A stretch of 32,000 bases of DNA from positions 330,001 to 362,000 of the forward strand of contig OY969902.1 in the NCBI GenBank assembly GCA_963704435.1, given 5' to 3'. The translations under genes and the position numbers were made by a program. The stretch comes from an uncultured archaeon. Its GTDB lineage: Archaea > Micrarchaeota > Micrarchaeia > Micrarchaeales > CABMGC01. Below are positions 1 to 26,238 of this stretch, piece by piece. The notes under the pieces were generated by a model. That model did no database searches. It was not told where the DNA came from and saw only the letters and a list, made by a program, of their open reading frames with translations. How positions within the stretch are numbered: position 1 is the first letter of the stretch; each line of letters begins with the position of its first letter.

Positions 1-350
1 GCATAGGAGGAGGTGCAGGCGAGGTATTGGTCCCCCCTGCTGCTCTGCGTCGCTCCGAAGCCGGAGATGACTATGTTTCCCGAAGGCGCGACCATGTTGG
101 AGACCACGACGGTAGTGACCCCGTTTGAGGTAGTAAACGGGATTATTCCGCCAGCGTAGGGCGACGCGGTGCAGTTGCCCTGGCCCCAGCAATACGGGTT
201 GTAGGCACCTATCTGAAAGGAACCGCTGAGGCCTCCCGGAAGGCCGATTATGCTGAACGTAAGGCTGTTATTCGGTATGGTATTCGATCCGGCGGCCATG
301 CCTGCCATGAGGAGCAGGGCCAGGATAAGGAACCGCCGCGAGATGTTCAT
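1..350 (-). CDS. Secreted hypothetical protein, N-terminal part only (gene runs off the left edge)
   Basis: Not in the ORF track because there is no stop in the window. The reverse-strand ATG at 350..348 opens a frame with no stop down to position 1: MNISRRFLILALLLMAGMAAGSNTIPNNSLTFSIIGLPGG... An RR pair plus a hydrophobic core indicates a signal peptide, possibly Tat-like. Its ATG overlaps the TGA of the upstream ORF (ATGA at 350..347). Confidence 0.5.
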   Translation of the reverse strand, partial: MNISRRFLILALLLMAGMAAGSNTIPNNSLTFSIIGLPGGLSGSFQIGAYNPYCWGQGNCTASPYAGGIIPFTTSNGVTTVVVSNMVAPSGNIVISGFGATQSSRGDQYLACTSSY

Positions 351-679
351 ACGCTCACCGCCAAAGTGCGGGCCCGCAGCTCCGCCGCCGCCTGCCGCAT
401 TTTCAAGACTAATGGCCGCAACAAGGCCACGAGCTGGCTGTCCTTCACCAAGACCAGCGAGTTGCCCTCGCAGATTCCGACGAGGGAGCGTTCGCCATTG
501 AGGGCCAGCTTATCCCGGAGCGTACAAGGGATATAGAGGAATAGAGCACCGTTCTTGCTTTCGACGCGGCAGAGATCGAGAGTCGGCCCTATCCCGAATC
601 CTTTTAATAGGCGGGTGAGCCTTTCCTCATTAGCTGGACTGTTGGGGGCGTTTGCAGCGCCCTCCGATTCCTTTTTCAT
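347..679 (-). CDS. Small hypothetical protein, possible SpoVT/AbrB-like DNA-binding segment
   Basis: 110 aa ORF. The segment FLYIPCTLRDKLALNGERSLVGICEGNSLVLVKD resembles the AbrB/MazE looped-hinge pattern (x-IP-x-x-R-x-x-L-x-L-x-x-G-x-x-L). It is start/stop coupled on both sides (ATGA at 679..676 and 350..347). Confidence 0.45.
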   Translation of the reverse strand: MKKESEGAANAPNSPANEERLTRLLKGFGIGPTLDLCRVESKNGALFLYIPCTLRDKLALNGERSLVGICEGNSLVLVKDSQLVALLRPLVLKMRQAAAELRARTLAVSV

Positions 680-960
680 GGCGCTTTCACCTCATCGCTC
701 TCCGACTTGGGCTGTTTCTTGACCAAAGCGCGGTACCACAGCAGAAGCTGCTCGGCGGGGGTTGGCTGGCCGGTCATCGAATTACCCCGAGGGCGTTGCC
801 GAGCAAGAATCGAACCAATGAGGAACGCGATCGCTCTGTCTTTTTGGCTTCGGCATCCAGTCTTTTCTTCAATGCCGTCGACATTACGATAATTACGCGC
901 TCTTCCTGTGCTTCTCGCATCCGACTCTCCTTTGTATGTCAGTATTATGTGCCGAAGCAT
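676..960 (-). CDS. Hypothetical small ORF, first gene of the coupled operon (start uncertain)
   Basis: 94 aa ORF whose TGA overlaps the next ATG. There are no recognisable motifs. Competing plus-strand ORFs (652..972, 707..892) cover the same GC-rich DNA, so support is weak. An internal Met (MTGQPTPAEQLLLWYRALVKKQ) is an alternative start. Confidence 0.2.
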   Translation of the reverse strand: MLRHIILTYKGESDARSTGRARNYRNVDGIEEKTGCRSQKDRAIAFLIGSILARQRPRGNSMTGQPTPAEQLLLWYRALVKKQPKSESDEVKAP

Positions 961-1012
961 ATATTAAAATAATAAAACCTAAGTAATTATACGACTATAA
1001 GAGGTAATTTAC

Positions 1013-1990
1013 TTGTATAATTCAAAAGGCGCGAATCTGGCCAATGCATCGATATCGAGAATCTGCCTTGTGCTCCTATCCCATCTTGACGAACCGATAC
1101 CGATAAAGCAAATAACCGAAGAAGTCTACGCCGATGCTCGTACTGGCTACAGAGCAATGCCTAATCGAGAGAAAAATAAAGCAGGTCGCAAACGCAACTC
1201 AGGCGAATTCTTCAAAGCAAATTACCAGGAAGTTCACCAATGTTGTGCGGACCTAAAAAAGCAGGGGCTCATAGAAATAACCAAATCAGATAAAGATGGA
1301 AGGCAATCGCTCGTTAAGCTCAATCTGAAAGGCCTTCTCACAAAAATCTTCGGGCCAAGAACCAATAAAAAATCACTCGTTGTGCTAAATAAATCTCTAT
1401 CGCCTATTGAAGAATGGAACCACATAATTGCAAATATTAAAAGCGCCATACTTGGAACTAAATCTCTTATGAAAACGCGCTCTGATTATATCGCTGCAAT
1501 TAAAAAAAGCGGTGGGAGCGAATACGAACGAAATATTGCTTTGCCTGAGAAGGAAAAAGAAATGCAAAAATACGCTAAAGAGCTAACGCAAAAAGAACAA
1601 AGATTAAGGAGTATGCAAAACGATTTGGCAGAGGCAAAGGCCATAGGGAAGTCCTCTGCATTCAGTCTAAATGATTCCGAAATAAATTTTCTTTTGAAAA
1701 GACTTGACTGCACCAATTTGAAAAGAGAATTCAATTGGCTTAGAAAAGGAGGAATGCTTAATTACCTGAATGGCAATTCGAACATTATCAAAATTCTCGT
1801 TGCCGTAATTAAAAGATTAGACTTACCAGGTTCTTGCTATGGTGACTATCACATATCGCTCAAACTACTTGGAATTGACGGAACAGATACTGCGCCAATA
1901 ACTGAAAACGTTCTACTTTCCTTTATTTGGAAAAGTGGTCTTCCCGATGTCGTAGAATTTTACGATAAATTCTATTGGAAAGCGCGGTGA
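1013..1990 (+). CDS. AT-rich hypothetical protein with N-terminal winged-helix-like region (integrated-element cargo)
   Basis: 325 aa ORF with a TTG start at 1013 and no upstream ATG. The N-terminal 110 aa (SRICLVLLSHLDEPIPIKQITEEV...LKKQGLIEITKSDKDGRQSLVKLNLKG) has a MarR/wHTH-like helix-turn-helix plus wing pattern. Composition is much more AT-rich than the flanks. It lies directly next to the integrase. Confidence 0.6.
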   Translation: MYNSKGANLANASISRICLVLLSHLDEPIPIKQITEEVYADARTGYRAMPNREKNKAGRKRNSGEFFKANYQEVHQCCADLKKQGLIEITKSDKDGRQSLVKLNLKGLLTKIFGPRTNKKSLVVLNKSLSPIEEWNHIIANIKSAILGTKSLMKTRSDYIAAIKKSGGSEYERNIALPEKEKEMQKYAKELTQKEQRLRSMQNDLAEAKAIGKSSAFSLNDSEINFLLKRLDCTNLKREFNWLRKGGMLNYLNGNSNIIKILVAVIKRLDLPGSCYGDYHISLKLLGIDGTDTAPITENVLLSFIWKSGLPDVVEFYDKFYWKAR

Positions 1991-1991
1991 A

Positions 1992-3224
1992 TCATTTTTC
2001 CAAAACCTTCATCACGTTCTCCTTCGTCTTGGCGTCCAGCCTCTCCAATAGCAGATTGAAGGCCGCCTTCATGTCATGCAGCTCGCTCCGTAAGCTCTCG
2101 TAGTCGTCCAGTTGCTCGTAGGGTGTCTTATCCAGCGAGCTCGCGCAGTTTATGCAGAAGTGCGCGGTGGGTTCATTTGCGGCATGGCACTTGTAGCACA
2201 GTTTCGCGGTCAGCTTCGGCTTCTCAGGTTCGCCGTTCTGCTTCATGCCCATCGCCCTGAAGAAGTCCTCCTCGACCTGGGCCGTCGACAGCTTACCGTA
2301 ATGCCCTACCATCTTCTCATTCTTCCAGCCGAAGAACTTGACCATCGCGCTTGTCGACATGCCATGTGAAATAAGGTAGGTGCAGCGGGAATACCTCAGA
2401 ACGTGGGCATGGAGGCGCTTTTCGAGGCCGCTGCGCCTTTTCAGGTCCACCAGTAGGGTCTTGACATTCGGATAGTCCATAGCCTGCTGCGTCGGTTCAT
2501 TGTGCCTTATGGTCACAAAGAGCGGGGCCTCGCTCGCAGCCCCCCTCCGCCACTCATTGACGTACCTGGTCAGCGCGGGCACTGAGACCGAGAGGGGCGT
2601 TATCCTGGTTCCGGTCTTCCCGGTGAGTATGATGCGGCTCGGCCCTTTGGATGAGAGGGTCAGGTCCTTCATGCGCAGGTTGAGGACCTCTCCGATCCTT
2701 GCTCCGGTGTCCCATAAAAGGCAGATCAGCGCCCTGTCCCTGACGTTCCTGCATGCGGTCAGCAGTCTCTCTATATCGGTCTCGTCCAGCATCTCCGTCG
2801 GCAGCTTCGCGTTCGTCGCGTTCATGTCCAGCTTGACCCATCCGACGAGCGCATCAGCCTTGGAATCCAGCAGCCACCTCACGAACTGCTTGAAGGTCAG
2901 CTTTATCCGCGCCTTAGAGTAGGAGTTCAGGTCCCTGTCAAGCGACTTGCCCTCGGCGGTCATGGCCTTCAGCCTGTTCACCCTTCGGACTATCTCCTCG
3001 ACGTCCTCTTTGGTAAGCGCCTTGAAGTCCTTGCAGACCCCGAGGCCGCATACCGTGCGCAGCTCGAAGAGCCTCTTGTACCGCGTCCGGTCTTTCCTGC
3101 CGTTCAGGGATAAAAAGTCCTCATACTTTAGGAGGTATGCCCTGTTCGGCTCGCTTACGCCCTTTTCTATATGCTGGAGCTCCGACTTGAGGATGCAGGG
3201 CCCGTTCTCCAGGTACTTTGCCAT
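1992..3224 (-). CDS. Tyrosine recombinase/integrase with C-terminal zinc ribbon and coiled-coil tail
   Basis: Catalytic pattern visible: DTGARIGEVLNLRMKDL (Arg), HAHVLRYSRCTYL (H-x-x-R), FGWKNEKMVGHYGKL (W...Y). C-terminal CYKCHAANEPTAHFCINC is a CxxC...CxxC motif at 2145..2198. The ORF track extends to 3353, but that extension overlaps tRNA-Cys; the Met at 3224 (MAKYLENG...) is the likely start. Confidence 0.9.
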   Translation of the reverse strand: MAKYLENGPCILKSELQHIEKGVSEPNRAYLLKYEDFLSLNGRKDRTRYKRLFELRTVCGLGVCKDFKALTKEDVEEIVRRVNRLKAMTAEGKSLDRDLNSYSKARIKLTFKQFVRWLLDSKADALVGWVKLDMNATNAKLPTEMLDETDIERLLTACRNVRDRALICLLWDTGARIGEVLNLRMKDLTLSSKGPSRIILTGKTGTRITPLSVSVPALTRYVNEWRRGAASEAPLFVTIRHNEPTQQAMDYPNVKTLLVDLKRRSGLEKRLHAHVLRYSRCTYLISHGMSTSAMVKFFGWKNEKMVGHYGKLSTAQVEEDFFRAMGMKQNGEPEKPKLTAKLCYKCHAANEPTAHFCINCASSLDKTPYEQLDDYESLRSELHDMKAAFNLLLERLDAKTKENVMKVLEK

Positions 3225-3288
3225 GCTTCTAATCTGGCCCGAGGGCGGTATTTCAATCTTTCGGGGTAATGGTAAGCTTGACTGCGGT

Positions 3289-3359
3289 AGCCAGGGAAGG
3301 GAGTTGAACCCCTCTTTTCCGCTCTGCAGGCGGACGCATAGCCGATCTGCCACCCTGGC
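3289..3359 (-). tRNA. tRNA-Cys (anticodon GCA)
   Basis: Cloverleaf folded by hand from the reverse strand: acceptor GCCAGGG/CCCTGGC, D-stem GCAG/ATGC (one G-A mismatch), anticodon stem TCCGC/GCGGA with loop CTGCAGA, T-stem AGGGG/CCCTT with loop TTCAACT, discriminator U73 (typical of tRNA-Cys). No encoded CCA. Confidence 0.85.
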
Positions 3360-3433
3360 GGGCGCATATCATCATCTTTAATAAACGAACATTTAAAAAC
3401 AGTTGAAGGCAATTAAGACCGAAGGTAATTTTG

Positions 3434-4585
3434 ATGTCGACACTTTACGAGCCGCTGCCAAAGGAGTTTGTTTCCAAGACTGCATCTTTCGACTACAAGA
3501 CGCCCATGACGCAGGCGCTTGACGGGATAAGCCAGTTCGGCGCGGTCATAGTCGTCAAGGACAAGGAGTATTTCGGCATCGCGGACGGGAGGGCAGTCTC
3601 GAGGAAGGGCTCCGACAGATCCCTGAAGTTCGCGAAGACCCTGCCTGTCGGCAGGTTCGCGAGAAAGCTGCCCGTGCTCGGCCCAGACGTTTCTGTGGGC
3701 AGGACGATAAGCTATTTCCACGAGTTCTCGGCAAAGGCTTTCCCATACCGGGACGCAGGAGGCATAACGGGCATAGTGAAGAGGGATGTGGTCCTCAGGT
3801 CGATAATCTCGCTCCACCTTCTGTCCAAGTCGGTCGTCGGGGACGCGATGTCGACCCCGGTGCTCGCGATAGACGCTGGCGCAAGCCTGTCGCAGGCCAT
3901 GAGCGTGATGTCGCAGAACAAGATAACGCGGCTCATCGTGGTTGACGGGGGGAAGCCCTTCGGACTGATAACGCACAAGGACATATACTCCAATTTCGCC
4001 AGGGCGGATTCGCGGCATCCCGAGCTCACGCCTGAGCCGCGCTCTCTCTCCGACGTGACCGTGAGGCAGGTCGCAAGGACCGAGACGCACTCGATAGACT
4101 ATCAGAGCCCGCTGGAGGACGCGATAAGGAGCCTGCTCGCCAAGGGCATATCCTCGCTCATAGTCACCAGGAATGGAAGGCCCGTCGGGATGCTCTCCAT
4201 TAGGGACGTCTTCGAGCTTGCGGCGTCGAGCATAGAGAAGGTGCGCAGCAGGGTTATCGTCACTGGCATAGACGACAGCACGGTGGGCTACGAGCAGGAC
4301 ATAGAGAACGAGGCCAACAGGATGATAGACAGGATGGACAAGTTCGGCAGGCTGGGAATAAGCTACGCCGCGATAAACGTCAACAGGGTCAAGGAGAGGG
4401 GCTACGAGCTAAAGGCCAGACTGGGCTTCGAGAGGAAGGGCGTGATGTACGCGACGGCCACCGGATACGGCATCGAGGCCACGCTGACCGCGCTGCTGGA
4501 CAGCCTGTTCAAGCAGGTCAAGGAGAAGAAGGAGATGGGTGTGAGCCTCAGGAAGGGCTCCGAGAGATACTATGGCGAGAAATAG
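3434..4585 (+). CDS. CBS-domain protein (four CBS motifs) with C-terminal HPF/RaiA-like module
   Basis: The track start at 3431 is TTG; ATG is at 3434. CBS motifs include VVGDAMSTPVLAIDAGASLSQAMSVMSQNKITRLIVVDGGKPFGLITHKDI and VRQVARTETHSIDYQSPLEDAIRSLLAKGISSLIVTRNGRPVGMLSIRDVFE, plus two degenerate N-terminal ones. The C-terminal 94 aa (4253..4534) follows the HPF/YfiA pattern (see findings). Confidence 0.85.
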   Translation: MSTLYEPLPKEFVSKTASFDYKTPMTQALDGISQFGAVIVVKDKEYFGIADGRAVSRKGSDRSLKFAKTLPVGRFARKLPVLGPDVSVGRTISYFHEFSAKAFPYRDAGGITGIVKRDVVLRSIISLHLLSKSVVGDAMSTPVLAIDAGASLSQAMSVMSQNKITRLIVVDGGKPFGLITHKDIYSNFARADSRHPELTPEPRSLSDVTVRQVARTETHSIDYQSPLEDAIRSLLAKGISSLIVTRNGRPVGMLSIRDVFELAASSIEKVRSRVIVTGIDDSTVGYEQDIENEANRMIDRMDKFGRLGISYAAINVNRVKERGYELKARLGFERKGVMYATATGYGIEATLTALLDSLFKQVKEKKEMGVSLRKGSERYYGEK

Positions 4586-5051
4586 GAACGGGAGCAGGAG
4601 GCTGCAGTCGAGCTTCGAGCTCCTCGTGACGCTGTCGCTCGGCCTTGCGATACTCATGCCGATAGTGGTGATAGCGTTCGTGCAGCTCTCCGCGTCGTCA
4701 TCGTCGCTCTCTGCGATAGAGTCCCAGCAGGCCGCGAGCAAGCTCGCGAGCGTCGCAGTCCTCGTGGGGAGCCAGGGCGCCCCTGCGAAGCAGCTGGTGC
4801 AGATATCAGTCCCTCCAAACGTGAGGTACATCTACATAGGCAACGCAAACAACACCGTGGGCCACGAGGTGATATTCGTCGTCGCATCCTCATCGGGCCC
4901 TAGCTACGTCACCGCGTACACGCCCGTGAACGTCAGCGGCAGCCTCGGGAGCCTGGCCTCGGCAGGGACGTACCTTGTGAACGTGACCGCGCAGTCCTCA
5001 TGCCCCACGAACACGCTGCTGGCGTGCGTCTATATGTCCTCGAAACCATGA
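4572..5051 (+). CDS. Small pilin-like protein with class III signal peptide
   Basis: 159 aa. The N-terminus MARNRNGSRRLQSSFELLVTLSLGLAILMPIVVIAF has a basic stretch, then Q-S-S-F-E (Glu at +5 if cleaved before Q), then about 20 hydrophobic residues. The remainder is Ser/Thr/Val-rich with N-x-S/T sequons. Overlaps the CBS gene by 14 nt. Confidence 0.7.
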   Translation: MARNRNGSRRLQSSFELLVTLSLGLAILMPIVVIAFVQLSASSSSLSAIESQQAASKLASVAVLVGSQGAPAKQLVQISVPPNVRYIYIGNANNTVGHEVIFVVASSSGPSYVTAYTPVNVSGSLGSLASAGTYLVNVTAQSSCPTNTLLACVYMSSKP

Positions 5052-5165
5052 TCTACTGTCAGATATGTGAAATGGGTGACAGTCAGATAGTGAGCAATTG
5101 CCCATCTTGGCTAGTTGTTTAAAATATCCCTGCTAAAATGAAATAAATTTAGATTTAGTAGGGTT

Positions 5166-5177
5166 AAATTTAAATAT
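5166..5177 (+). promoter_or_regulatory. TATA-like box upstream of the AAA+ gene
   Basis: The sequence aaatttaaatat is centred about 26 nt upstream of the ATG at 5198, spacing typical of an archaeal promoter driving a leaderless or short-leader mRNA. Confidence 0.35.
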
Positions 5178-5197
5178 CTTAAGGTGCAATTCACAGC

Positions 5198-6457
5198 ATG
5201 GAGAATATCATTCCAAGAGAACTGGAAGCGAAAATTTTAAGATTTGCCAAGGATAAGGAGATTATAATCATAAGGGGGCCGCGCCAAGCTGGCAAAACAA
5301 CATTGCTGAAGCTGATAGCTGAGACCGTAAAATCAGAGAAGGTTTTCATCGATTTGGACATTCCAGAGAATAGAAACGCCCTTGCAGACTCCCCTATGGA
5401 TTTCATAGATCGGTTTGGGAAGGGCAGAAAGCTAACTTTGTTTCTAGATGAAGTCCAGCGCGTCACCGACGCTGGGGAAAAACTGAAAATAATATACGAC
5501 CAGTTCGCGGACAAGGGCGTAAAGGTGTTCGCTTCGGGTTCGTCCTCATTAGATATCAAGACGAATGTGCTTGGTTTTCTAGTTGGTAGAGCATTAATAT
5601 TTGACCTTCTTACTCTCGGATTCGGGGAATTCCTGAACTACAAAGACGAAGGCCTTTTCAACATATTCAAAATGCGGAACGACGAAGTAATGGGCTTCAT
5701 AGCGCAAGGCAATCCGATAAAGAAGCCTGCATTCACGTCCGAGATCCTAAAGTATTGGAAAGAGTACGTCTTGTTCGGAGGTTATCCGGCGGTAGTAAAG
5801 ACCAGAAGTGCCGAGGACAAAAAGATCAGGCTGAAAAACATATACGGCACATACATAGAGAAGGACATTGTCTCTTTTTTTGGGATAGGGAAGTCCTCGC
5901 TTTTTGAGGATTTTGTTGTAGCTTTGTCATTCAACACCGCAAACAGCCTTACTCTCTCATCGGTTGCCGCGGACTCAGGCATAACCCACTACGCCGCGAA
6001 AGAGTTCCTCAATATCTTGGTCGGTACGTACGTCATTGGAATCCTAAGGCCATACTATCGCAATGCCACCACTGCGATAAAGAAAGCGCCGAAGGTGTAT
6101 TTTATTGACCTTGGCCTTAGGAACGCCGCAATCGGAAACTACTCTGTCTTCGATAAGCGTGATGATAGGGGCAAGATCGGAGAGAATTTCGTATACAGGG
6201 AACTCATAGGGATGGGTTATGAGATAAACTACTGGCGCACAAAAAGTGGCGCAGAGGTGGATTTTCTAATAAAAATCGAACAGGGCATCATTCCGGTGGA
6301 GGTAAAGCTGGGCGGAGCGCGAACACTTGGCAAAAGTTTCTACAGCTTCATAGAGCGATATAAACCCAAAAGGGCGCTTATCGTGACGCTAGACCATTTT
6401 GGAAAGGAAAAAATAGGGGGTACTGAAGTATATTGGGTGCCGATATTCTACCTCTAG
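5198..6457 (+). CDS. AAA+ ATPase with C-terminal PD-(D/E)xK-like domain (COG1373/DUF4143-type architecture)
   Basis: Walker A IIIIRGPRQAGKTTLLK and Walker B LTLFLDEVQ. The C-terminal YWRTKSGAEVDFLIKIEQGIIPVEVKLG fits a D...E-x-K nuclease-fold motif. The gene and its flanks are clearly more AT-rich than the neighbouring pilin genes. Confidence 0.9.
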   Translation: MENIIPRELEAKILRFAKDKEIIIIRGPRQAGKTTLLKLIAETVKSEKVFIDLDIPENRNALADSPMDFIDRFGKGRKLTLFLDEVQRVTDAGEKLKIIYDQFADKGVKVFASGSSSLDIKTNVLGFLVGRALIFDLLTLGFGEFLNYKDEGLFNIFKMRNDEVMGFIAQGNPIKKPAFTSEILKYWKEYVLFGGYPAVVKTRSAEDKKIRLKNIYGTYIEKDIVSFFGIGKSSLFEDFVVALSFNTANSLTLSSVAADSGITHYAAKEFLNILVGTYVIGILRPYYRNATTAIKKAPKVYFIDLGLRNAAIGNYSVFDKRDDRGKIGENFVYRELIGMGYEINYWRTKSGAEVDFLIKIEQGIIPVEVKLGGARTLGKSFYSFIERYKPKRALIVTLDHFGKEKIGGTEVYWVPIFYL

Positions 6458-6561
6458 CGTGTTTCAGGCATCATAAGCAGGTTAGCGGTTGTGTGTAACC
6501 GCCCGCATGATGGGCCGCAAAAACGTTTAAGAGCGTGTCCATCGATATTGAGCTGAGTTTG

Positions 6562-9500
6562 ATGGCCCGCAGTAAGCTCCAGTTATCCATAGAGTTCATG
6601 ATGGTCTTCTCCTTCGTGCTCGTGGTCTTCACCTTCCTGTTCGCGCTCGTGGCCACCCAGAGAGCGCAGACGCTGAACAGCCAGGAGTTCGAGCAGGGCC
6701 AGCTTGTCGCGCAGAGCGTGGCGGCGCAGCTCGACAGGGCGCTGCAGGCGGGGAACGGGTACTACGCCGCGATACCAATCACGAGCGCGCTGGGCACTCT
6801 GAACTACAAGCTGGCGATAACCAAGGGCGGGGCGGTGGTCGTCAACACCACGATAAACAAGCAGGTGACGCAGGCGATATCCTACAGCTCCGTGAAGCAG
6901 GTGGTCTCGAACCCGTCGTTCATACCCGCAGGTCTTCCTACGAACGCGGTGAGCTACTACCTGATGCCGATAGCCAACGGCACGCTGACGATACAGAACT
7001 CATTCGGGACAATCTGCGTCGACTATGCATGCCCAACCACGAGCAACACGGCAACCAACGTCAGCATGTCGGAGCAGGTAGTGCACGCAGCAAACTTCAA
7101 CGGGCAGAGCAGCTATATACAAGTAAACAATCCCTTCAGTACCAGTTGGTATTTTTATTGGCATTACGGGAGTGCTAATGTGGTTGCAGCAATAGTCGGC
7201 TCTACGGTGTATTCGTCCACTACACTTCATCCGAATGTGTGGTCGCACGTCTGCTTTACTTATTTATCTGGTTCGGGAACGCTAAATATCTATGCCAATG
7301 GTGCTCCAGCTGGCTCAGGTTCGGCGACAGGTGGTAGTACCCTATCAGTATGTGCATGGATTTATCCAACAAGCAGCGCGATAGGAGACATCACAAGCAG
7401 TGAAGATTCTACCAACTATGCGCTAATCGGTGCAAGAAACCCAACCACCAACCTCTTTCAGGGCTCCATCTCCAACGTCCAGATATACAACATCGCCCTT
7501 TCATCGAGCCAAGTTTCCGCACTCTACGCAGAGGGCATAACAGGCAGCCCACTCGCAGGGGCGGGGAATATCGGATGGTGGCCGCTCAACGGCAACGCGA
7601 ATGACTACTCAGGCAATGGCAACAATGGAAACGTCATAGAATCAATGATGTACACCACAGTGGCGCAGCTCTCCGCAAAAGTAACGAACCCGCTTGGCCA
7701 GCCGCTCGCAAATGCGCTTGTAGGATTTACTACCACTCTCGGCAACCTCACAAAAGGCCAGGTCGCCATTAACTACACCAACGGAAACGGCATCGCGACA
7801 GCGTTCCTGGACCAGCAGGGGAACAGCGGCCAGGCGCTGGTGAAGGCCACCGCATACAACGGCAATACGGCGCTGCAGGGCAACCTGGTAAGCTGGTATC
7901 CGCTCAACCTGGACCAAGGAAGCACGGTCCCCGACCTTAGCGGCAATGGCAACAACGGGGCGATGCTCTACACTAGCTGGAGCGACCCGAACTACGTGGC
8001 TGGATTTGACGGGCAGAGCAGCTATATTTCAACTTTCTCAAATAATTTTCCTACGGGCTCAAGTGCCTATTCGGTATTCGCTTGGGTTTATTTGACTTCC
8101 AATGTCCCAACAGCCATTCAGGCAATAGACTATTATGGGACCCAGGGCACGAGCTACGCGACGCGCATCTTCTCAACGGTTGGGCAGACACTTTGTTTCT
8201 TTGGAGGATCCGATACTTTCCAATCAACGCTAACAGTCCCTCTAAATACCTGGACGCTTGTTGGAGTGACCTATCAAGCATCCTCAACGCAAGTCACAAT
8301 ATACATGAATGGACAGTCGCAGATAGGAACACTGAGCGGAAGTACCGCGTTAAATACCCCTTCAGGGACGATAAACTATGTTGGCGGGAATCCCACCTAC
8401 TTGTGGTGGTTTCCGGGCAGAATTGCAAATGTACAGATGTACAGCACCGCCCTTTCGGCAAACCAGGTCCAGCAGCTCTACCCGAGCGGTATTTCCAGTC
8501 CTCCAATCGCGGGCTCGGGGCTCGTCGGTTGGTGGCCGCTCAACGGCAACGCGAACGACTACACCAGCAATAACAACAACGGTGCCATTTACGGGAACCT
8601 TAACTTCGCAAGCACGTCCTCGATTCCAAGCCCAAATGCGAACGCCACGAGCATGTTTGCCGGGGGATTCAACGGAATCAGCAGTCAAGTGACGGTAGCC
8701 TCTACCGCAATTCCGAACGCTGCCACTCTTATAGCATGGATATATCCCTATAACGTAATAGGAGAATCGGGATGCTCCAAGGAAGCCAGCGGTTGCATAT
8801 CCATAATGGGATACTCTCCGGCCTCCGCAGAATATGATCTTTGGCTTTATCTCACCAATGGGCAGCTCGGAGGCACGGCATACAGCACGACGTATCCCAT
8901 GCTTCACGGAGGCACCACCATAACTGCAAATAATTGGTATCAGGTCGCCATGACTGCATCAAATACGCTTGGCACTCTCTCTCTGTATATCAACGGCGTG
9001 AACGTGGGAACGAATGCTATAGTGAGTCAGGGATTTTGGACTGGCGGGAATCCGGAAATCGGAAATCTGAGAGCAGGGCAGACTACTAACTTCAATGGCC
9101 TCATCTCTAACGTCCAGCTCTACAACTCCACCCTGAACGCAAATCAAATCCGCACAAGCTACAGTGAAGGGATAGGCGGCCTTCCGCTCACTGCGAACCT
9201 CATCGGATGGTGGCCGCTCAACGGAAACGCGAACGACTACTCCATGGTGGGGAACAATGGGACCGCATCGAACGTCGTTTATCCCGCAATTCAGACGATG
9301 GGAGGAGGAATTCCCACCTATTCGCTGGGCTCGTACGGCGCGAACTTCAACGGCCAGAGCAGCTACGTAACCTTCGGAAACAGCATCAACCCTGGATTTG
9401 GCAGCTTCACTGTCGAGGGCTGGGCTTATGCCACAAACTACACCTACCCGAGGACGCGCATCCCCATAGGGAGCTACACGAGTTCCGGCAGCGGCTTGCC

Positions 9501-9912
9501 AGGATGGGGCATAGACGACGCCTATACTGCAGGCGCCATCACGATATATTTTTCGGACGGGACAAATAGGCTAAGCACCAGCATCCCTTGCGATCCGGGA
9601 TACAAGCCCACCGATACCCTGAACAGGTGGGCGCAGGTGGTGGTCGTTTTCAACAGGACATCGGGCAAGGCGATCGCATACGTAAATGGGGTGCAGCAAT
9701 CGACGCAGGTCTCCATCGCCGCGGTAACGGGAAACGTGTTTAACTCATATGCTGGAGAGCTCGGGCTCGTCGCCGGCTGGTACCTTAGCGGTTCGATGGC
9801 GGACGTCCAGCTATACAACGCCGCGCTGAACGCTAACCAGATCAAGCAGCTCTACCAGAGCCAGATGCCGCCCAGCGCCAGTGCAGCCGTTCCTTTGAGT
9901 TGGGTCCCATGA
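6562..9912 (+). CDS. Giant pilin-signal protein with four LamG (concanavalin A-like lectin) modules and one Ig-like insert
   Basis: Track start 6535 is GTG; the ATG at 6562 gives MARSKLQLSIEFMMVFSFVLVVFTFLFALVA (class III signal-like, Q+1...E+5). There are four modules, each starting near FNGQSSY/FDGQSSY and ending ISNVQIYNIALSSSQVSALYAEGITGSPL, IANVQMYSTALSANQVQQLYPSGISSPPI, ISNVQLYNSTLNANQIRTSYSEGIGGLPL and MADVQLYNAALNANQIKQLYQSQ. An Ig/Big-like segment (AKVTNPLGQPLANALVGFTTTLGN...NGIATAFLDQQGNSGQALVKATA) lies at about 7633..7890. Confidence 0.9.
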   Translation: MARSKLQLSIEFMMVFSFVLVVFTFLFALVATQRAQTLNSQEFEQGQLVAQSVAAQLDRALQAGNGYYAAIPITSALGTLNYKLAITKGGAVVVNTTINKQVTQAISYSSVKQVVSNPSFIPAGLPTNAVSYYLMPIANGTLTIQNSFGTICVDYACPTTSNTATNVSMSEQVVHAANFNGQSSYIQVNNPFSTSWYFYWHYGSANVVAAIVGSTVYSSTTLHPNVWSHVCFTYLSGSGTLNIYANGAPAGSGSATGGSTLSVCAWIYPTSSAIGDITSSEDSTNYALIGARNPTTNLFQGSISNVQIYNIALSSSQVSALYAEGITGSPLAGAGNIGWWPLNGNANDYSGNGNNGNVIESMMYTTVAQLSAKVTNPLGQPLANALVGFTTTLGNLTKGQVAINYTNGNGIATAFLDQQGNSGQALVKATAYNGNTALQGNLVSWYPLNLDQGSTVPDLSGNGNNGAMLYTSWSDPNYVAGFDGQSSYISTFSNNFPTGSSAYSVFAWVYLTSNVPTAIQAIDYYGTQGTSYATRIFSTVGQTLCFFGGSDTFQSTLTVPLNTWTLVGVTYQASSTQVTIYMNGQSQIGTLSGSTALNTPSGTINYVGGNPTYLWWFPGRIANVQMYSTALSANQVQQLYPSGISSPPIAGSGLVGWWPLNGNANDYTSNNNNGAIYGNLNFASTSSIPSPNANATSMFAGGFNGISSQVTVASTAIPNAATLIAWIYPYNVIGESGCSKEASGCISIMGYSPASAEYDLWLYLTNGQLGGTAYSTTYPMLHGGTTITANNWYQVAMTASNTLGTLSLYINGVNVGTNAIVSQGFWTGGNPEIGNLRAGQTTNFNGLISNVQLYNSTLNANQIRTSYSEGIGGLPLTANLIGWWPLNGNANDYSMVGNNGTASNVVYPAIQTMGGGIPTYSLGSYGANFNGQSSYVTFGNSINPGFGSFTVEGWAYATNYTYPRTRIPIGSYTSSGSGLPGWGIDDAYTAGAITIYFSDGTNRLSTSIPCDPGYKPTDTLNRWAQVVVVFNRTSGKAIAYVNGVQQSTQVSIAAVTGNVFNSYAGELGLVAGWYLSGSMADVQLYNAALNANQIKQLYQSQMPPSASAAVPLSWVP
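7571..7628 (+). repeat. LamG-junction DNA repeat, copy 1 of 5
   Basis: tcggatggtggccgctcaacggcaacgcgaatgactactcaggcaatggcaacaatgg encodes GWWPLNGNANDYSGNGNNG. Confidence 0.8.
8525..8582 (+). repeat. LamG-junction DNA repeat, copy 2 of 5
   Basis: tcggttggtggccgctcaacggcaacgcgaacgactacaccagcaataacaacaacgg; about 37 of the first 40 nt match copy 1 by eye. Confidence 0.8.
9203..9260 (+). repeat. LamG-junction DNA repeat, copy 3 of 5
   Basis: tcggatggtggccgctcaacggaaacgcgaacgactactccatggtggggaacaatgg; about 38 of the first 40 nt match copy 1 by eye. Confidence 0.8.
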
Positions 9913-10448
9913 AGGCGCAGTTCTGGTCTTTCGATGCAATATTCGCGATGGTGATATTCATAGCCGCGCTGGTCCTGCTGACGTTCGTCTGGAACAGCAT
10001 GAGCAACCAGTTCTCTCTCGCGTCCGGATTCGGCGTCGTGAACATGCAGGCCCAGCTGCAGAGCCTGCAGAACAGGATAATCACGCAGGGCGCACCCGCA
10101 AACTGGAACTCTCAGGTCAATGTCTCGAAAATCTCAACGTGGTCAAATGTGAGCATAGGCCTGGGAACAGGCGGAGGATCGTCGCTCTCGGTAAACAAGA
10201 TAATGACCTTTGTGGCGATGTCCGACCACAACAGCACGGCGTACCAGGCCACGAAGCCGCTTCTCGGAGTTGGCTATGATTATTATATCACAATATACGA
10301 AAGCAATGTGACGATTGGATTGGGGATTCCCCCATATGCGCACAGCCCAACAGCAATTCAGGTCGCAAGGCAGTCCGTAGTGGTAAACGGAGCACCTGCG
10401 CAGATGCAGATAATTGTCTGGACGAACAAGACCTTCGGTGTCAGTTGA
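9909..10448 (+). CDS. Small pilin-like protein with class III signal peptide
   Basis: The ATG at 9909 overlaps the upstream TGA (ATGA at 9909..9912). N-terminus is MKAQFWSFDAIFAMVIFIAALVLLTFVW (K-A then a hydrophobic stretch). 179 aa with several N-x-S/T sequons. Confidence 0.75.
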   Translation: MKAQFWSFDAIFAMVIFIAALVLLTFVWNSMSNQFSLASGFGVVNMQAQLQSLQNRIITQGAPANWNSQVNVSKISTWSNVSIGLGTGGGSSLSVNKIMTFVAMSDHNSTAYQATKPLLGVGYDYYITIYESNVTIGLGIPPYAHSPTAIQVARQSVVVNGAPAQMQIIVWTNKTFGVS

Positions 10449-12604
10449 TGAAAGGCGTGATGTTCACACTCGATGCGCTCTTCGCGCTGCTGATAGCGGC
10501 AGCAGGCATCTCTGTGCTGCTGTACTTCAACTACTATGCGCAGAACCCCTCCACGATTCCATACTCAAATGCGCAGTCAATCCTATATGACTTGCTATCG
10601 ACGCCCGTACAAAGCATCCAGAACAGTAGCGTACTCGCAAAGACCATGGCCAACCAGTTCGCAGGCGCAAATGAGACCTGGGCGCAGCTCATGGGCGGCG
10701 TAGCAAGAAACAGCAGCAATCCCATAGGTCCCATAAGACCGCTCATATCGTCAGTCTTCACGTCCGCCAACCCGATAACGACCGGAGTCGTCGCAGACTA
10801 CGGGAATATCTATTTCGCTTCAGGCAGCGGGCTCTATGCGGTAAACGCTACATCTAACCAGTCAATATGGAGCGTTTATGAAAGCGCTAGCGTCGTATCT
10901 GCCCCTGCGCTGTACCGCGGAACGGTGATATTCGCAACTTCCACGAATCTTATCGCCGTGGATGCGAGAACGGGTTCGACTCTCTGGAGCACAGCGATAT
11001 CTGGATTTACTCCTACTTCTTCAATAGCAGCCTATGACAACAGGGTGCTGTTCGGCGCTACGGACGGTAACGTGCACGCATATTATGCCAATAACGGGAC
11101 AGCCTTGTGGACATATTCTGTTGGGGGCTATCCAACGCTGATAACCGTGGCCTCAGGAAGTTTTGCAGTAAAAACTTCAGCGAACAATATCTTCCTCCTG
11201 TCTCAATTTGGAACTACGGCAAACCAGATCTGGAGCACGACCCCTCCCTCGCCTCCGACCAACGGCCTGGTTAGCGTCGGCAGCGCAATATATTTCGGAA
11301 CGAGCACGACCGCCAATGCGATAGCTATCAATTCTGTGCAGGCTGGCGGGTTTCCGGCGAGCGTGCCATCTGCGACAAGCGGAGTGGCTGCTTACAAAAG
11401 TTATGTAATATATCAAGGAGCTACAACAATCAATGCGCTTTCTACCTCTGGCGCACAGTATTGGAGCTTAAACCCGGTGCCCTCTTATTTCGGCAGCGGA
11501 ATAGCTAACGCAACTCCCGCAGTTTCAGGAAGCATGGTCTACACGCTCTGGGCGAACGGATTGGCGGGGCAGTACCTCAACAACGGAACGGTGGCGTGGT
11601 TCGCTCCGGTTACCGCGACACTCCCGTACATGGCGCTCGCGTACGGCAGGCTCTATGTGGTTTCCGGAAGCCAGGTGATTGCATACGGATCCTGCAACGC
11701 CCCCTTTAACGCGTCGATGCTCACCTCGATAGCCACTCTTACGCTTAATTCGCAATCGGGATGCGCGCTTGCGCTGTCTAACGTTGCGTATCCTGCGGCG
11801 AACTATACTGTGTTCGCGGGCAACGCCTCGAGCCGGAGAATCCAGGTTGCGAACTTCAACGGCGGGACAAGCAACTATGTGATTGCCACCTCCCCATCTG
11901 GATTAACGGGTAGCGGCTCAATCTGCGCATGGTTCTATCCATCTGCATCACAGATGTCTTATGCATACACGATAGGCGACTTTGGGACTTCGGGCACCGA
12001 TACGCATGAACTTGACCTTCTGATAAATGGAGGAATATTTCAGGTTTTGAATGCTGTTGGAGGGACAGAATACGCCCTAACCACGGCCTCTCCCGCATTG
12101 GGAACTTGGCATTTGGGTTGTGCAACCTGGACAGGTTCTAACATGTATCTCTATCTTGACGGAGTCCCTCCTGTTTCTAACGCGTATGGAACTACGGATC
12201 CTCTTGATTGGTCGTCCATCTCCTATATTGGCGCCAGGCCAGGCGCAGGCAACCAGGTATGGCTGGGACAACTATCAAACTTCCAGATCTACGGATCCGC
12301 CCTCTCTGCTAATCAGGTGCAAGCGCTCTACCAGGAGGGCATCTCAGGACCTCCAATCAGCTCGGCCAGCCCCAGAGCGTGGTATCCGCTCGAAGGGGAC
12401 ACGAACGACTATGCAGGATTCAGCTCGGGATATGCGGCTAACGTGAACTTCGTGGCGCAGAACGCGATCTCGCCACACTTCTCGAACGCCTATTCCATAA
12501 GCGAGTCCCGCACCCTGCTGCCGCTGCTGAACTATTCAAGATTGACATATAACGCAATAGGCGCGTACGGAGTCTATCCTGTAGGTGTTTATTCATGGAG
12601 ATGA
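10448..12604 (+). CDS. Pilin-signal protein with PQQ-like beta-propeller repeats and one C-terminal LamG module
   Basis: The ATG at 10448 shares its A with the upstream TGA (10446..10448). N-terminus is MKGVMFTLDALFALLIAAAGISVLLYF. Repeated blades of the type GNIYFASGSGLYAVNATSNQSIWS, GTVIFATSTNLIAVDARTGSTLWS and NRVLFGATDGNVHAYYANNGTALWT span about 10790..11693. A LamG module follows (ANFNGGTSNYV ... LSNFQIYGSALSANQVQALYQEGISGPPI). Confidence 0.9.
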   Translation: MKGVMFTLDALFALLIAAAGISVLLYFNYYAQNPSTIPYSNAQSILYDLLSTPVQSIQNSSVLAKTMANQFAGANETWAQLMGGVARNSSNPIGPIRPLISSVFTSANPITTGVVADYGNIYFASGSGLYAVNATSNQSIWSVYESASVVSAPALYRGTVIFATSTNLIAVDARTGSTLWSTAISGFTPTSSIAAYDNRVLFGATDGNVHAYYANNGTALWTYSVGGYPTLITVASGSFAVKTSANNIFLLSQFGTTANQIWSTTPPSPPTNGLVSVGSAIYFGTSTTANAIAINSVQAGGFPASVPSATSGVAAYKSYVIYQGATTINALSTSGAQYWSLNPVPSYFGSGIANATPAVSGSMVYTLWANGLAGQYLNNGTVAWFAPVTATLPYMALAYGRLYVVSGSQVIAYGSCNAPFNASMLTSIATLTLNSQSGCALALSNVAYPAANYTVFAGNASSRRIQVANFNGGTSNYVIATSPSGLTGSGSICAWFYPSASQMSYAYTIGDFGTSGTDTHELDLLINGGIFQVLNAVGGTEYALTTASPALGTWHLGCATWTGSNMYLYLDGVPPVSNAYGTTDPLDWSSISYIGARPGAGNQVWLGQLSNFQIYGSALSANQVQALYQEGISGPPISSASPRAWYPLEGDTNDYAGFSSGYAANVNFVAQNAISPHFSNAYSISESRTLLPLLNYSRLTYNAIGAYGVYPVGVYSWR

Positions 12605-15195
12605 AGTCAATCCTCAGGAGGTCGCACAAGGCACAGCTAATGACAATACTGGTGCTGGTGCTCTTCATGCTCATGCTGGCTGAGCTGTTCGCGTTCGCTC
12701 TGCTGAACGTGAACTCGAACAGCATGGCGCAGCAGCTCACAGTATCGCTCAGCACGAACAATTACGGCAGCCTTCTTAAGCAGAGCGCGGGAGCATTCGC
12801 GCAGGCGAGCATGTATGGCGCCCTTGCGGCGATAACGAATTACGAATACAGCCCTGCGCTCAGGAAGGGCAACTTCATAGCCAATTTCAGCCAGTACATG
12901 TCGTATCTCATGACGAACGGGATTCTCCCAAACGATGTCTCGGGATATCCGCAGAACGCGATGGGAAATCTCACTCTCGCAAGCTACAACGCTTCCATAT
13001 CAAAGCTCGTGGGTTTCGCCTCGCAGAACGTAATCGTGAACGAGACCGCGCCCAGGATCTTCCAAACGGATCCGTTCCATCTGCGCGTATCATACACGGA
13101 GAACATAGCGATAAACGCGTCAGGAAGCATCTACAGGTATAGCATACCCGTCAACGCGTCGATAAACCTCAACAATACGCCCGACCTCTTCTACGCGCAG
13201 CAGGGCATTCTCAGAACGGTAAAGTTCGCGAGCGCAAGCAATCTGACTTCTGTCGTCTCGGGCTCTTATGCCACTTCGGGCAACACTATCGACTATGCCT
13301 ATGGCACGGTATACGCAATCTCAAGCAGTTCCACGAGCAGCGCCACCTGCTCGGGCGGCTACGTAGCTGGCATGCCCTCCCAGTTCAACTCCGCGCTCGC
13401 GAACTCCCTGATAATATCCACTTACAACGCGTTGAGCCTAAGCTCATGCATAACCAGCTATGGGGGCCTCGTATCCTATATCGCGCCTTCGAGTCTACCG
13501 GCCATGCCTTATCTCACATACTCCTCATCATCAGGAGTCGTGGCGAGCCTGCCCACAGGCATGCACGTCCTGCTCTACGGCCCGGGGATGGACGTGCTGA
13601 ACATAGAGAACCTGAGGAACGCGGTCATGAACGCCAACTACTTCCCTTCGCAGTTCACGCCCTCGTTCATCGACAGGGCGAATGCGAACTTCGCCGACCA
13701 GTCGCCCAACGGCATATTCTCCTTCAACAACTACAACACCCAGATTGCGAGCTTCAACGGCGCCAGCAGTTTCGTGGATGTACCATACAATTCCGTAATC
13801 GAGGGCATGACGAGCAACATCGCCGTGAGTGCATGGGTTAGTACGGCTTCGTCCTCAGCCCAGGTTATCTTCTCGGCGTGGGACGGCACCAACGGCTACC
13901 AGCTATACTCGAATAGTGGCAACGTTATCCTATGGTCCAATGGCGGCGGATCCCTCGTCTCTCCCAAGCGCGTCAACGACGGCAACTGGCACTACATAGT
14001 CGGAGTCTACACCAGCTCCATGAAGTACCTCTATGTGGATGGCGTGCTGGTCGCCAGCGGATCAGGCACACTCTCCGCCTCGACCAAGGATGCGCAGATA
14101 GGCACACAGTGCTCCGGTTCGGGCGGCACTACCTGCAGCGACTTCTTCTCCAACTCCATCGCTAATGTACAGCTATACGGCCTGCCGTTAACGGCGGCGC
14201 AGGTCCAGCAGATCTACCAGGAGGGCATCTCCGGCCTCCCGATAGCCAACGCGGGATTGGTCGGGTGGTGGCCACTCAACGGGAACGCCAACGATTTCTC
14301 TGGCAACAGCAACAACGGTGTGCCAAACTACGTTACATATAGATTGCCCTCAAACTATGCCCGGGACAGCATTCTCGTCGCCAATACGCCAATGGCTCCC
14401 CAGCCGCTCCCAGGAATCCTTTCCTGCACGTCGAACAGCCAGTGCGCGAGCAACAGCCTGCCGATGCTTTACCTCAGCTACATGCCGCTCGCGGTCCAGA
14501 GCGGGATCATGCAGTCAGGGGGATTCAACGGCTGGACCAACTACATAAGCGTGTCTTCCAGCGCTCTGGACACGGGCAGCGCGGTCACGATGGTGGTCTG
14601 GAGCGACCAACTCGGATCAGGGAACCAGGGGACGCGCGGCATAATGTTCTCGCAATATTCGACATATCTGGACGTTTGCTACAGCGGCGCGCCGCTGTTT
14701 GCTGTCGAGAACTTAGGAGGCACCCAGATACTCGCGCAGGGGGGGACCTGCCCTACCGCAGGGGTGTGGAGGCAGTATGTTGGCACCTATGACGGCTCAA
14801 CGATGCGGCTGTACATAAATGGCGTTCAGGTAGGAAGCAATTCCCAGAGCGGCACGCTGGGTCCCGCGGCAGTGAATATCGGGGAATACTACGCCGGCAG
14901 CTACAATTTCAATGGCCTGCTATCGAACGTGCAGCTCTACAACGCAGCCCTGTCCGCGACCCAGGTGAGCAGCCTCTATCAAGAAGGCATCGCGGGCATA
15001 CCGTTAACGGCGAATCTCGTCGGATGGTGGCCGCTCAACGGCAATGCCAACGACTACAGCGGCAACGGGAACAGCGGGGTTCCGGTCAACGGAGTCATCT
15101 ATCCTTACTTCTCGGGAACGTACAACGCCCCGGGCTTGTCGTCCATCGCCACGACGGCGAACGAGTGGCAGGCGCTCGGCCTTGCGAACACGTGA
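12595..15195 (+). CDS. Pilin-signal protein with two LamG modules
   Basis: ATG at 12595; an alternative ATG at 12601 forms an ATGA overlap with the upstream stop. The N-terminus ...RRSHKAQLMTILVLVLFMLMLAELFAFALL has K-A then a hydrophobic stretch. LamG modules end IANVQLYGLPLTAAQVQQIYQEGISGLPI and LSNVQLYNAALSATQVSSLYQEGIAGIPL. The protein stops shortly after a final GWWPLNGNANDYSGNGNSG motif. Confidence 0.9.
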   Translation: MEMKSILRRSHKAQLMTILVLVLFMLMLAELFAFALLNVNSNSMAQQLTVSLSTNNYGSLLKQSAGAFAQASMYGALAAITNYEYSPALRKGNFIANFSQYMSYLMTNGILPNDVSGYPQNAMGNLTLASYNASISKLVGFASQNVIVNETAPRIFQTDPFHLRVSYTENIAINASGSIYRYSIPVNASINLNNTPDLFYAQQGILRTVKFASASNLTSVVSGSYATSGNTIDYAYGTVYAISSSSTSSATCSGGYVAGMPSQFNSALANSLIISTYNALSLSSCITSYGGLVSYIAPSSLPAMPYLTYSSSSGVVASLPTGMHVLLYGPGMDVLNIENLRNAVMNANYFPSQFTPSFIDRANANFADQSPNGIFSFNNYNTQIASFNGASSFVDVPYNSVIEGMTSNIAVSAWVSTASSSAQVIFSAWDGTNGYQLYSNSGNVILWSNGGGSLVSPKRVNDGNWHYIVGVYTSSMKYLYVDGVLVASGSGTLSASTKDAQIGTQCSGSGGTTCSDFFSNSIANVQLYGLPLTAAQVQQIYQEGISGLPIANAGLVGWWPLNGNANDFSGNSNNGVPNYVTYRLPSNYARDSILVANTPMAPQPLPGILSCTSNSQCASNSLPMLYLSYMPLAVQSGIMQSGGFNGWTNYISVSSSALDTGSAVTMVVWSDQLGSGNQGTRGIMFSQYSTYLDVCYSGAPLFAVENLGGTQILAQGGTCPTAGVWRQYVGTYDGSTMRLYINGVQVGSNSQSGTLGPAAVNIGEYYAGSYNFNGLLSNVQLYNAALSATQVSSLYQEGIAGIPLTANLVGWWPLNGNANDYSGNGNSGVPVNGVIYPYFSGTYNAPGLSSIATTANEWQALGLANT
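14261..14318 (+). repeat. LamG-junction DNA repeat, copy 4 of 5 (most diverged)
   Basis: tcgggtggtggccactcaacgggaacgccaacgatttctctggcaacagcaacaacgg, located in the third large gene. Confidence 0.7.
15019..15076 (+). repeat. LamG-junction DNA repeat, copy 5 of 5
   Basis: tcggatggtggccgctcaacggcaatgccaacgactacagcggcaacgggaacagcgg, close to the 3' end of the third large gene with no LamG body after it. Confidence 0.8.
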
Positions 15196-15231
15196 GCTTT
15201 ACCGAGCTGCACCCCCTTCCGCCTCTCGGGA

Positions 15232-17675: not shown

Positions 17676-17694
17676 GCATTACTTAGTCGCAAAC

Positions 17695-17703: not shown

Positions 17704-17718
17704 GGCGCGTCGGCAATG

Positions 17719-22963: not shown

Positions 22964-22970
22964 AGAAACA

Positions 22971-26225: not shown

Positions 26226-26238
26226 TATCCCCTGCGCT

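Follow-up and report, generated by a model that had tools for sequence, protein, structure and literature searches.

We analysed 32,000 nt of DNA from an uncultured archaeon of the Micrarchaeota (GenBank assembly GCA_963704435.1, contig OY969902.1, positions 330,001 to 362,000 of the forward strand). This whole stretch is referred to as the window, and positions are counted from its first letter. Near its beginning, on the + strand, lies a gene for a protein of 383 amino acids (aa) in which a tetrad of CBS units precedes a module resembling bacterial HPF and RaiA. A first-pass annotation, made from the sequence letters, had proposed that this CBS-HPF fusion may be an energy-sensing ribosome hibernation factor. 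The parts of the gene are as follows, with residue numbers referring to the predicted protein and model confidence given as the predicted local distance difference test (pLDDT) score.

3434..4585, + strand: probable HibA/AHA-family ribosome hibernation factor gene (CBS tetrad plus HPF/RaiA-like module), 383 aa, stop codon 4583-4585.
3467..3613, + strand: CBS1, degenerate, residues ~12-60; a conserved G48-h-h-D51-x-R53 stands in place of the canonical ribose-binding motif.
3647..3811, + strand: CBS2, degenerate, residues ~72-126; conserved G113-h-h-[KR]-R117.
3836..3997, + strand: CBS3, canonical, residues 135-188, with G177-L-I-T180-H-K-D183; the best Pfam CBS stretch is 135-186.
3998..4057, + strand: extended loop after CBS3, ARADSRHPELTPEPRSLSDV, residues 189-208; pLDDT <50 at 189-202.
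4058..4237, + strand: CBS4, canonical, residues 209-268, with G252-M-L-S255-I-R-D258.
4253..4555, + strand: C-terminal HPF/RaiA-like module, recognised in models, by Foldseek, by family-level matches to PF02482 and by hhalign.
4556..4582, + strand: C-terminal tail GSERYYGEK, residues 375-383, disordered (pLDDT about 31).

We place the start at ATG 3434 rather than at TTG 3431 because the alignment shows that the homologues share an MSTLYEPLP N-terminus. Open reading frames (ORFs) on the opposite strand (3413-4090 and others) were dismissed as high-GC artefacts because it is the + strand product that is conserved. This product is predicted to be basic (overall isoelectric point 9.6). A search of metagenome proteins identified 28 full-length homologues with 37-89% identity. 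The closest genome-resolved relatives (40-68% identity) belong to Candidatus Micrarchaeota metagenome-assembled genomes (MAGs) or to unclassified archaea. The identical protein is present on seven contigs, one of them 839 kb long, and a genome scan with the single protein as query found four loci. In public annotations homologues such as P0001, P0006 and P0009 are named 'predicted transcriptional regulator' (used by JGI for several) or 'CBS domain-containing protein', and a match to PF02482, the Pfam family of HPF and RaiA, was precomputed for only two of 32 homologues; the family is systematically under-annotated.

The C-terminal module has an HPF/RaiA-type topology in two independent AlphaFold-type models, one of the full-length protein (AlphaFold2, from an alignment of 25 family sequences, mean pLDDT 76.9) and one of residues 268-383 alone (pLDDT 79.8). 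The 94-residue string that the first-pass annotation had compared with HPF corresponds exactly to residues 274-367 (nt 4253-4534) within this module. When the module model was compared with the PDB using Foldseek, the top 17 fold matches were without exception chains of HPF, RaiA/pY, RafH or a 'ribosomal subunit interface protein'. E. coli HPF from the 100S ribosome ranked first (6h4n_x; E 7.6e-6, template modelling (TM) score 0.77, root-mean-square deviation 2.6 Å), and others included Listeria HPF (TM 0.74) and chloroplast pY. All matches at E < 0.02 were of the HPF type. The first unrelated natural folds, the double-stranded RNA-binding domain (dsRBD) and LptE, appeared at E >= 0.05 and with poor TM scores. 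An ACT or other small alpha/beta fold, the outcome that had been named in advance as contradicting the HPF assignment, was not found at better than E 0.05 in this comparison. We regard the predicted structure as the decisive evidence for an HPF-type identity of the C-terminal module.

At the level of sequence the resemblance of the window protein to HPF is weak, and the claim is carried by the fold and by family-level evidence. PF02482 (Ribosomal_S30AE, HPF/RaiA) is the only Pfam family matched by the module; among 18 family C-termini, 15 match it at E <= 1 (the best at 8.6e-5), and at most two match any other family. A profile of the C-terminal region searched against 177,635 PDB sequences ranked E. 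coli HPF chains first (E 0.04-0.3), and hhalign aligned it with E. coli HPF from beta2 to alpha2 at E 2.2e-4. Given the E-value of the best fold match, the restriction of the 17 best PDB matches to one family and the proportion of C-termini that match PF02482, the HPF fold match is beyond chance. In a search of 1.84 billion representative proteins the same profile identified 86 clusters at E <= 1e-3. The majority consist of proteins of 360-390 aa matched at their C-terminus and therefore represent the same fusion. The other clusters, few in number, hold proteins of 105-135 aa that stand alone, and two of these (P0092 and P0109, 108-114 aa; profile E 3.3e-7 and 2.4e-4) pass the PF02482 threshold with 24.5 and 24.7 bits.

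In the models the terminal helix (347-374) has 28 residues, which exceeds the corresponding helix of E. coli HPF, and is followed by the disordered tail of nine residues. Alignments to E. coli HPF also show a few inserted residues (1 and 3+1) around beta2-beta3. Two archaea-specific insertions relative to bacterial RaiA have been reported for the HPF/RaiA domain of the archaeal factor HibA (PMC13324472), with positions shown only in figures. NCBIfam contained no specific family for the protein, as all matches were to CBS regions and far under the cut-offs, and a Pfam scan of the protein found no DNA-binding domain.

The N-terminal part comprises four CBS-type beta-alpha-beta-beta-alpha units in the AlphaFold model, forming two Bateman modules in tandem. 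The CBS family PF00571 was matched at E 1.9e-25 with two significant stretches, which are CBS3 and CBS4; no PF00571 stretch above threshold was found in the Pfam scan for CBS1 or CBS2. Column counts place the canonical ribose-binding motif, G-h-h-[ST]-x-x-[DN], in CBS3 and CBS4 and not in CBS1 or CBS2, in agreement with the two canonical and two degenerate motifs described at first pass. The family form of the CBS3 motif is G-h-h-[TS]-x-x-[DN], with D, N or E at position 183, and D258 of CBS4 is invariant (25 of 25 sequences). Foldseek with the N-terminal 268 residues gave the ribosome-bound CBS tetrads of SriA-D and Dri as the best matches, followed by MJ1225 and AMPK gamma (E 1e-16 to 1e-13 across these tetrads). 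The same CBS relatives (Sri, Dri, MJ1225 and AMPK gamma) are listed in the study of the archaeal factor AHA (PMC12934967).

Proteins with this architecture have recently been characterised in other archaea. HibA is PAB0961 of Pyrococcus abyssi and TK1186 of Thermococcus (PDB 9SR9-9SRF and 9T7H; Madru et al., Nat Commun 2026, PMC13324472), with 9SR9 and its sister entries representing P. abyssi 70S-HibA complexes. AHA, for AMPKgamma-HPF from Archaea, is HVO_2384 of Haloferax volcanii (Souza et al., bioRxiv 2026, PMC12934967). Cryo-electron microscopy (cryo-EM), in vitro translation inhibition and knockouts show that HibA (P. abyssi and T. barophilus) and AHA (H. volcanii) silence and protect ribosomes, and that their HPF domain occupies the 30S A/P-site position (PMC13324472, PMC12934967). 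HibA occurs in 47% of archaeal genomes and in every major lineage, and the supplement of that survey includes about 130 Micrarchaeota genomes (PMC13324472). Homologues of AHA number 3,160 in 2,723 species of 17 phyla (PMC12934967). In published phylogenies the CBS modules of HibA form a monophyletic clade, HibA-CM, that is sister to CM-5.

The window protein is homologous to HibA over nearly its whole length. A phmmer search of PDB sequences returned a single collinear alignment between residues 14-373 and residues 12-379 of 9SR9 chain H (E 5.6e-14), which spans the four CBS motifs as well as the C-terminal module. With hhalign, the family profile matched the same chain at a probability of 99.2% (E 9.9e-20) over 340 collinear columns with 23% identity. 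A second PDB protein, 9L96 chain a (406 aa, 'CBS domain-containing protein'; also in 9L98, 9L9C and 9L9V), was matched by the family profile at E 2.3e-30, and a second stretch of this alignment (206-374 versus 221-388) passes through CBS4 and the whole C-terminal module. Given its many acidic residues, the 9L96 chain may be an orthologue of HibA/AHA from a haloarchaeon; literature searches did not identify entries 9L96, 9L98, 9L9C or 9L9V.

HibA has one nucleotide site, at the CBS3/CBS4 interface, with dissociation constants of 12 µM for AMP, 65 µM for ADP and 113 µM for ATP (PMC13324472), and AHA holds two AMP molecules at the CBS3/CBS4 junction (PMC12934967). The retention of canonical motifs in CBS3 and CBS4 is consistent with adenine-nucleotide binding at this interface, and we predict such a site in the window protein. 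In AHA, loop 3 inserts into the peptidyl-transferase centre (PTC) (PMC12934967), and the 'PTC loop' of HibA is formed by residues 190-207 (PMC13324472). The loop after CBS3 in the window protein, 20 residues modelled with low confidence, aligns with HibA residues ~186-210. It is positionally equivalent to these loops, and by analogy it may also insert into the PTC.

Thus, we conclude that the gene product is orthologous to, or a close relative within the family of, the archaeal hibernation factor known as HibA in Thermococcales and AHA in Haloferax, with a probability of about 0.85. It shares with these proteins a tetrad of CBS units, the fold of HPF, homology that is collinear, the loop after CBS3 and the long terminal helix. 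The collinear homology to P. abyssi HibA also supports the earlier proposal that the CBS-HPF fusion is a ribosome hibernation factor. This kind of protein is already known, as publications on HibA and AHA date from October 2025 to April 2026, and the finding is a rediscovery that adds no new kind of system. What has not been described is this divergent DPANN-type member and its conserved place at the head of a pilus/adhesin operon. 'HibA/AHA-family hibernation factor' is the proper name for this protein and its relatives, now labelled 'CBS domain protein' or 'predicted transcriptional regulator'. The case also illustrates that reading raw sequence can recover a recently validated architecture, in which an AMPK-gamma-like sensor and the universal HPF domain are joined in a single polypeptide.

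Comparison with named systems defines the position of the protein further. It is similar in length to HibA (383 versus 392 aa), collinear with it through both modules, and has canonical CBS3 and CBS4 motifs where HibA binds AMP and ATP. It differs in sequence (~23% identity, with C-terminal domains that are barely alignable alone and a different PTC-loop sequence) and in setting: the host is DPANN-like and of mesophilic or acidophilic type rather than a hyperthermophile, and the gene heads a pilin/adhesin cluster. With AHA, compared by description, it shares the fusion of a CBS tetrad to HPF, the AMPK gamma-like character of the tetrad (TM about 0.6), canonical CBS3 and CBS4, and a long terminal helix; the helix of AHA is likewise longer than that of E. 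coli HPF (PMC12934967), and an extended helix with a tail directed to the mRNA exit is also described for HibA (PMC13324472).

The C-terminal module has the fold and topology of bacterial HPF, RaiA (YfiA) and plastid pY, with weak but consistent sequence similarity, and presumably occupies the same A/P-site position on the 30S subunit, as shown for HibA and AHA. Unlike the bacterial proteins, the window protein carries an N-terminal CBS tetrad; it is not a stand-alone protein of ~95-115 aa and lacks the C-terminal dimerisation domain of long HPF. Its module falls below the PF02482 threshold and has a longer terminal helix, and 100S dimers are not expected. The closest structural counterparts of the N-terminal 268 residues are the ribosome-bound, adenine-nucleotide-binding CBS tetrads of SriA-D / ARC-P and ARC-A (Methanosarcina, Methanolobus) and of Dri (Pyrobaculum). 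Sri/ARC proteins are 260-340 aa long, act in pairs and have no HPF-like domain, whereas the window protein has an HPF-fold module of about 100 aa. Dri also lacks an HPF-like domain and contains two CBS tetrads (655 aa, chain 9e6q_3) instead of the single tetrad found here. The phyletic distribution of Sri/ARC and Dri is largely complementary to that of HibA/AHA.

Genes for pili and adhesins follow the CBS-HPF gene, and a short spacer precedes it:

3360..3433, no strand: divergent intergenic region of 74 bp, A/T-rich, between tRNA-Cys (- strand) and the CBS-HPF gene; the spacer sequence contains two TATA-like boxes, TTTAATAAA at about 3376-3384 and TTTAAAAA at 3392-3399, as well as a purine box, GAAGGTAA, at 3421-3428.
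4572..5051, + strand: overlapping pilin-like gene, 159 aa (RRLQSSFELL...), with a class III / type IV pilin-like signal RRLQSSFELLVTL and a hydrophobic helix.
4572-15195, + strand: cluster of five genes, with products of 159 aa (pilin-like), 1116 aa (LamG, starting at ATG 6562), 179 aa, 718 aa (PQQ/LamG) and 866 aa (LamG).
15232-19874, - strand: two PilC-like T2SSF genes and a PilB-like T2SSE ATPase gene, convergent with the pilin/adhesin cluster.

The ORF that begins at ATG 4572 encodes a hydrophobic helix that is preceded by MARNRNGSRRLQSSFELL, a signal of class III (type IV pilin-like); its product (4572..5051) has no Pfam match. As this ATG lies upstream of the end of the CBS-HPF stop codon at 4585, the two genes overlap by 14 nt, exactly as had been noted at first pass. 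The products of all five + strand genes have class III signal-like N-termini, made up of a short charged stretch and then a hydrophobic helix, and three of the five genes encode LamG domains, one of these together with PQQ-type beta-propeller repeats. Together with the convergent assembly genes, they form a complete type IV pilus/adhesin locus (4572-19874) that is headed by the CBS-HPF gene.

This arrangement is conserved. A pilin-like gene lies directly downstream of the orthologue in eight further loci with 38-68% identity (L005-L007 and L009-L013 were compared), giving nine loci in eight organisms overall. The other overlaps that were measured are 11-14 nt (L005-L007), 2 nt (L012) and 20 nt (L013). 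The conserved order is archaeosortase, archease, the CBS-HPF gene, pilin-like gene, LamG gene, ~179-aa gene and PQQ/LamG gene, and it recurs at orthologues of 65, 47, 39 and 38% identity. No TATA-like box was found within 100 nt upstream of the pilin start in the four high-GC loci. Given this absence and the conservation of overlap or adjacency in all nine loci, co-transcription, which the first-pass annotation had suggested, is plausible, and the hibernation-factor gene and the pilin cluster are probably co-transcribed.

In four loci (the window, L005, L006 and L007) the ATG of the pilin-like gene is embedded in the codons for the conserved ..(R)YYGE at the C-terminus (TAC TAT GGC). Conservation of the YYGE tail may reflect an overlapping-gene constraint as much as protein function. 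Upstream of the CBS-HPF start, a fully A/T octamer is present at 21-42 nt in 8 of 8 loci, with a GGAAAGGT-type box in most, and the boxes in 3360..3433 are predicted to act as a promoter. A scan for sigma-70 promoters and intrinsic terminators was uninformative for an archaeon.

The linkage to pilins is lineage-specific, as it is not seen at a relative from the Nanopusillaceae. In this MAG (GCA_049973735.1; L015, 5001-7490) the family member P0031 (367 aa, 26% identity, weak PF02482 match at 251-349) is followed, by a shared stop/start, by genes for exosome components, Rrp4-like (S1/KH) and Rrp41-like (RNase PH), which is an RNA-metabolism context. Term searches of the HibA and AHA papers (PMC13324472, PMC12934967) found no mention of synteny, operons or gene neighbourhood.

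Several observations weigh against membership of the HibA/AHA family and the role that goes with it. The C-terminal profile has no significant match to HibA's C-terminal domain alone (hhalign E 0.043, probability 1%). Most of the full-length score therefore comes from the CBS module, and for the same reason we claim no sequence-level orthology for the HPF modules by themselves; it is conceivable that a CBS tetrad and an HPF-like domain were fused in parallel, independently of HibA. In the Pfam check that had been recommended, the window protein itself scores 15.1 bits (E 0.04) against a PF02482 gathering threshold of 23.7 bits. Model confidence is moderate (mean pLDDT 77-80), the sequence of the PTC loop is not conserved with HibA, and the conserved operon partner is a pilin cluster rather than translation genes. 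The proposed coupling to energy charge was borne out in part: homologues bind AMP, ADP and ATP, but AMP and ATP had no clear effect on HibA-ribosome binding or on the distribution of conformations (PMC13324472).

The sub-threshold PF02482 score would also fit a CBS-domain metabolic or transcriptional regulator, for instance of the HhpR type, with a generic small alpha/beta dimerisation or ligand domain at its C-terminus and no role at the ribosome. CBS tetrads are common in non-ribosomal contexts, several homologues bear the JGI label 'predicted transcriptional regulator', and there is a weak NCBIfam match to HhpR (E 0.0013). However, the HhpR match reaches 18 bits where the cut-off is 520, no DNA-binding domain was found, the C-terminal fold matches at E < 0.02 are of the HPF type only, and the alignment to HibA is collinear through both modules; we consider such a regulator very improbable. 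A factor like Sri/ARC, whose CBS tetrad sits on the small subunit and blocks the decoding centre while the C-terminal module is a mere 'occlusion element' in the mRNA channel, would account for the best whole-model Foldseek matches, which are SriB/SriD chains (9znf_4, E 1.2e-16; 9zng_7), and for the lowest sequence E-values, which come from Sri chain 9zni_6; a small C-terminal element is also present in ARC/Sri proteins. These matches (chains of 263-281 aa) are limited to the CBS tetrad, where repeated CBS stretches inflate the scores, whereas alignments that extend across the C-terminal module are obtained with HibA and the 9L96 chain only, and this module has the HPF fold. In published phylogenies, moreover, HPF-fused CBS modules group with the clade that binds the large subunit (LSU). 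We consider an Sri-like mode of action very unlikely.

The conserved pilin overlap or adjacency (nine loci, eight organisms, down to 38% identity) suggests another role, that of a locus-specific post-transcriptional regulator of the pilus/adhesin operon that would bind RNA in a dsRBD-like manner under adenine-nucleotide control. HPF and dsRBD folds are alike, and dsRBD proteins are among the weak fold matches. But these matches (E >= 0.05) are far weaker than those to HPF, P0031 adjoins the exosome genes Rrp4/Rrp41 rather than pilins, and HibA and AHA of Thermococcales and Haloferax act on ribosomes. Membership of an operon does not require functional specificity, and a regulator dedicated to this locus seems highly unlikely. 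A looser connection, in which the operon link reflects a functional programme of co-expressed ribosome silencing and host attachment in Micrarchaeota-like DPANN archaea, is less far-fetched and still doubtful. If true, the hibernation-factor gene would be the promoter-proximal and translationally overlapping start of a conserved operon, and silencing and attachment would be expressed as one programme in a dormant, host-seeking episymbiont state. As a hypothesis, a hibernation factor at the head of the pilus/adhesin locus of a small-genome DPANN episymbiont hints at survival between hosts.

For the HibA/AHA-family hibernation factor that we favour, a mechanism can be proposed by homology to the HibA and AHA cryo-EM structures; ribosome binding sites, PTC-loop function and nucleotide binding are inferred for the window protein by this analogy. 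The basic C-terminal HPF/RaiA-like domain would lie in the mRNA/tRNA channel of the 30S subunit and cover the A and P sites, with the long terminal helix and tail directed to the channel by which mRNA exits. At the N-terminus the four CBS motifs would form a disc that docks on the 50S subunit, in the tRNA space, and the loop at 189-208 after CBS3 would extend into the PTC. One chain could clamp an empty 70S ribosome in this way, blocking translation and shielding rRNA from nucleases during starvation or stress, and would be displaced by mRNA and tRNAs once growth resumes.

The canonical CBS3 and CBS4 may form one or two adenine-nucleotide sites, and AMP, the tightest ligand in HibA, could couple the availability or release of the factor to the energy state of the cell. 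The energy-sensing step is the least secure part of the mechanism, and nucleotide-controlled release is speculative even for the HibA/AHA family. For related CBS factors that stand alone, the ARC study argues that regulation depends on nucleotides.

Other features of the window include accessory genes on both sides of the CBS-HPF gene and within the pilus/adhesin locus. Those upstream of it are:

1013-1990, + strand: winged helix-turn-helix/MarR-like gene.
1992-3353, - strand: tyrosine integrase with zinc ribbon.
3289-3359, - strand: tRNA-Cys, divergent from the CBS-HPF gene.

Starting at position 3289, where the 3' end of tRNA-Cys lies, the window matches contig L001 with 100% identity; the sequence before this point is unrelated to L001. 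L001 has archease, DUF87 and 245-aa genes upstream of that point, and the part specific to the window contains the tyrosine integrase and a low-GC segment (0.39). Positions 1-3359 look like a strain-specific element integrated at tRNA-Cys, with its other end beyond the window.

Between the pilin-like gene and the first LamG gene there is an AAA_14/DUF4143 ATPase gene (5198-6457, + strand, GC 0.44). It occurs in contigs of this organism only (the window and L001-L003) and is a recent insertion, as it is absent at that position in L005, L006, L007 and L013. Directly after the pilus assembly genes, three consecutive TrkA_N (RCK, NAD-binding) genes (251, 258 and 141 aa) were identified on the - strand at 21439-23396. 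Further downstream are a nucleotidyltransferase and HEPN pair (24899-25507 and 25474-25899), resembling a toxin-antitoxin-like MNT/HEPN module, an IS200-like Y1 transposase (26239-26694) and tRNA-Gln (26995-27069). The stretch from 24899 to 27069 is low in GC (0.46) and is probably another mobile or accessory patch.

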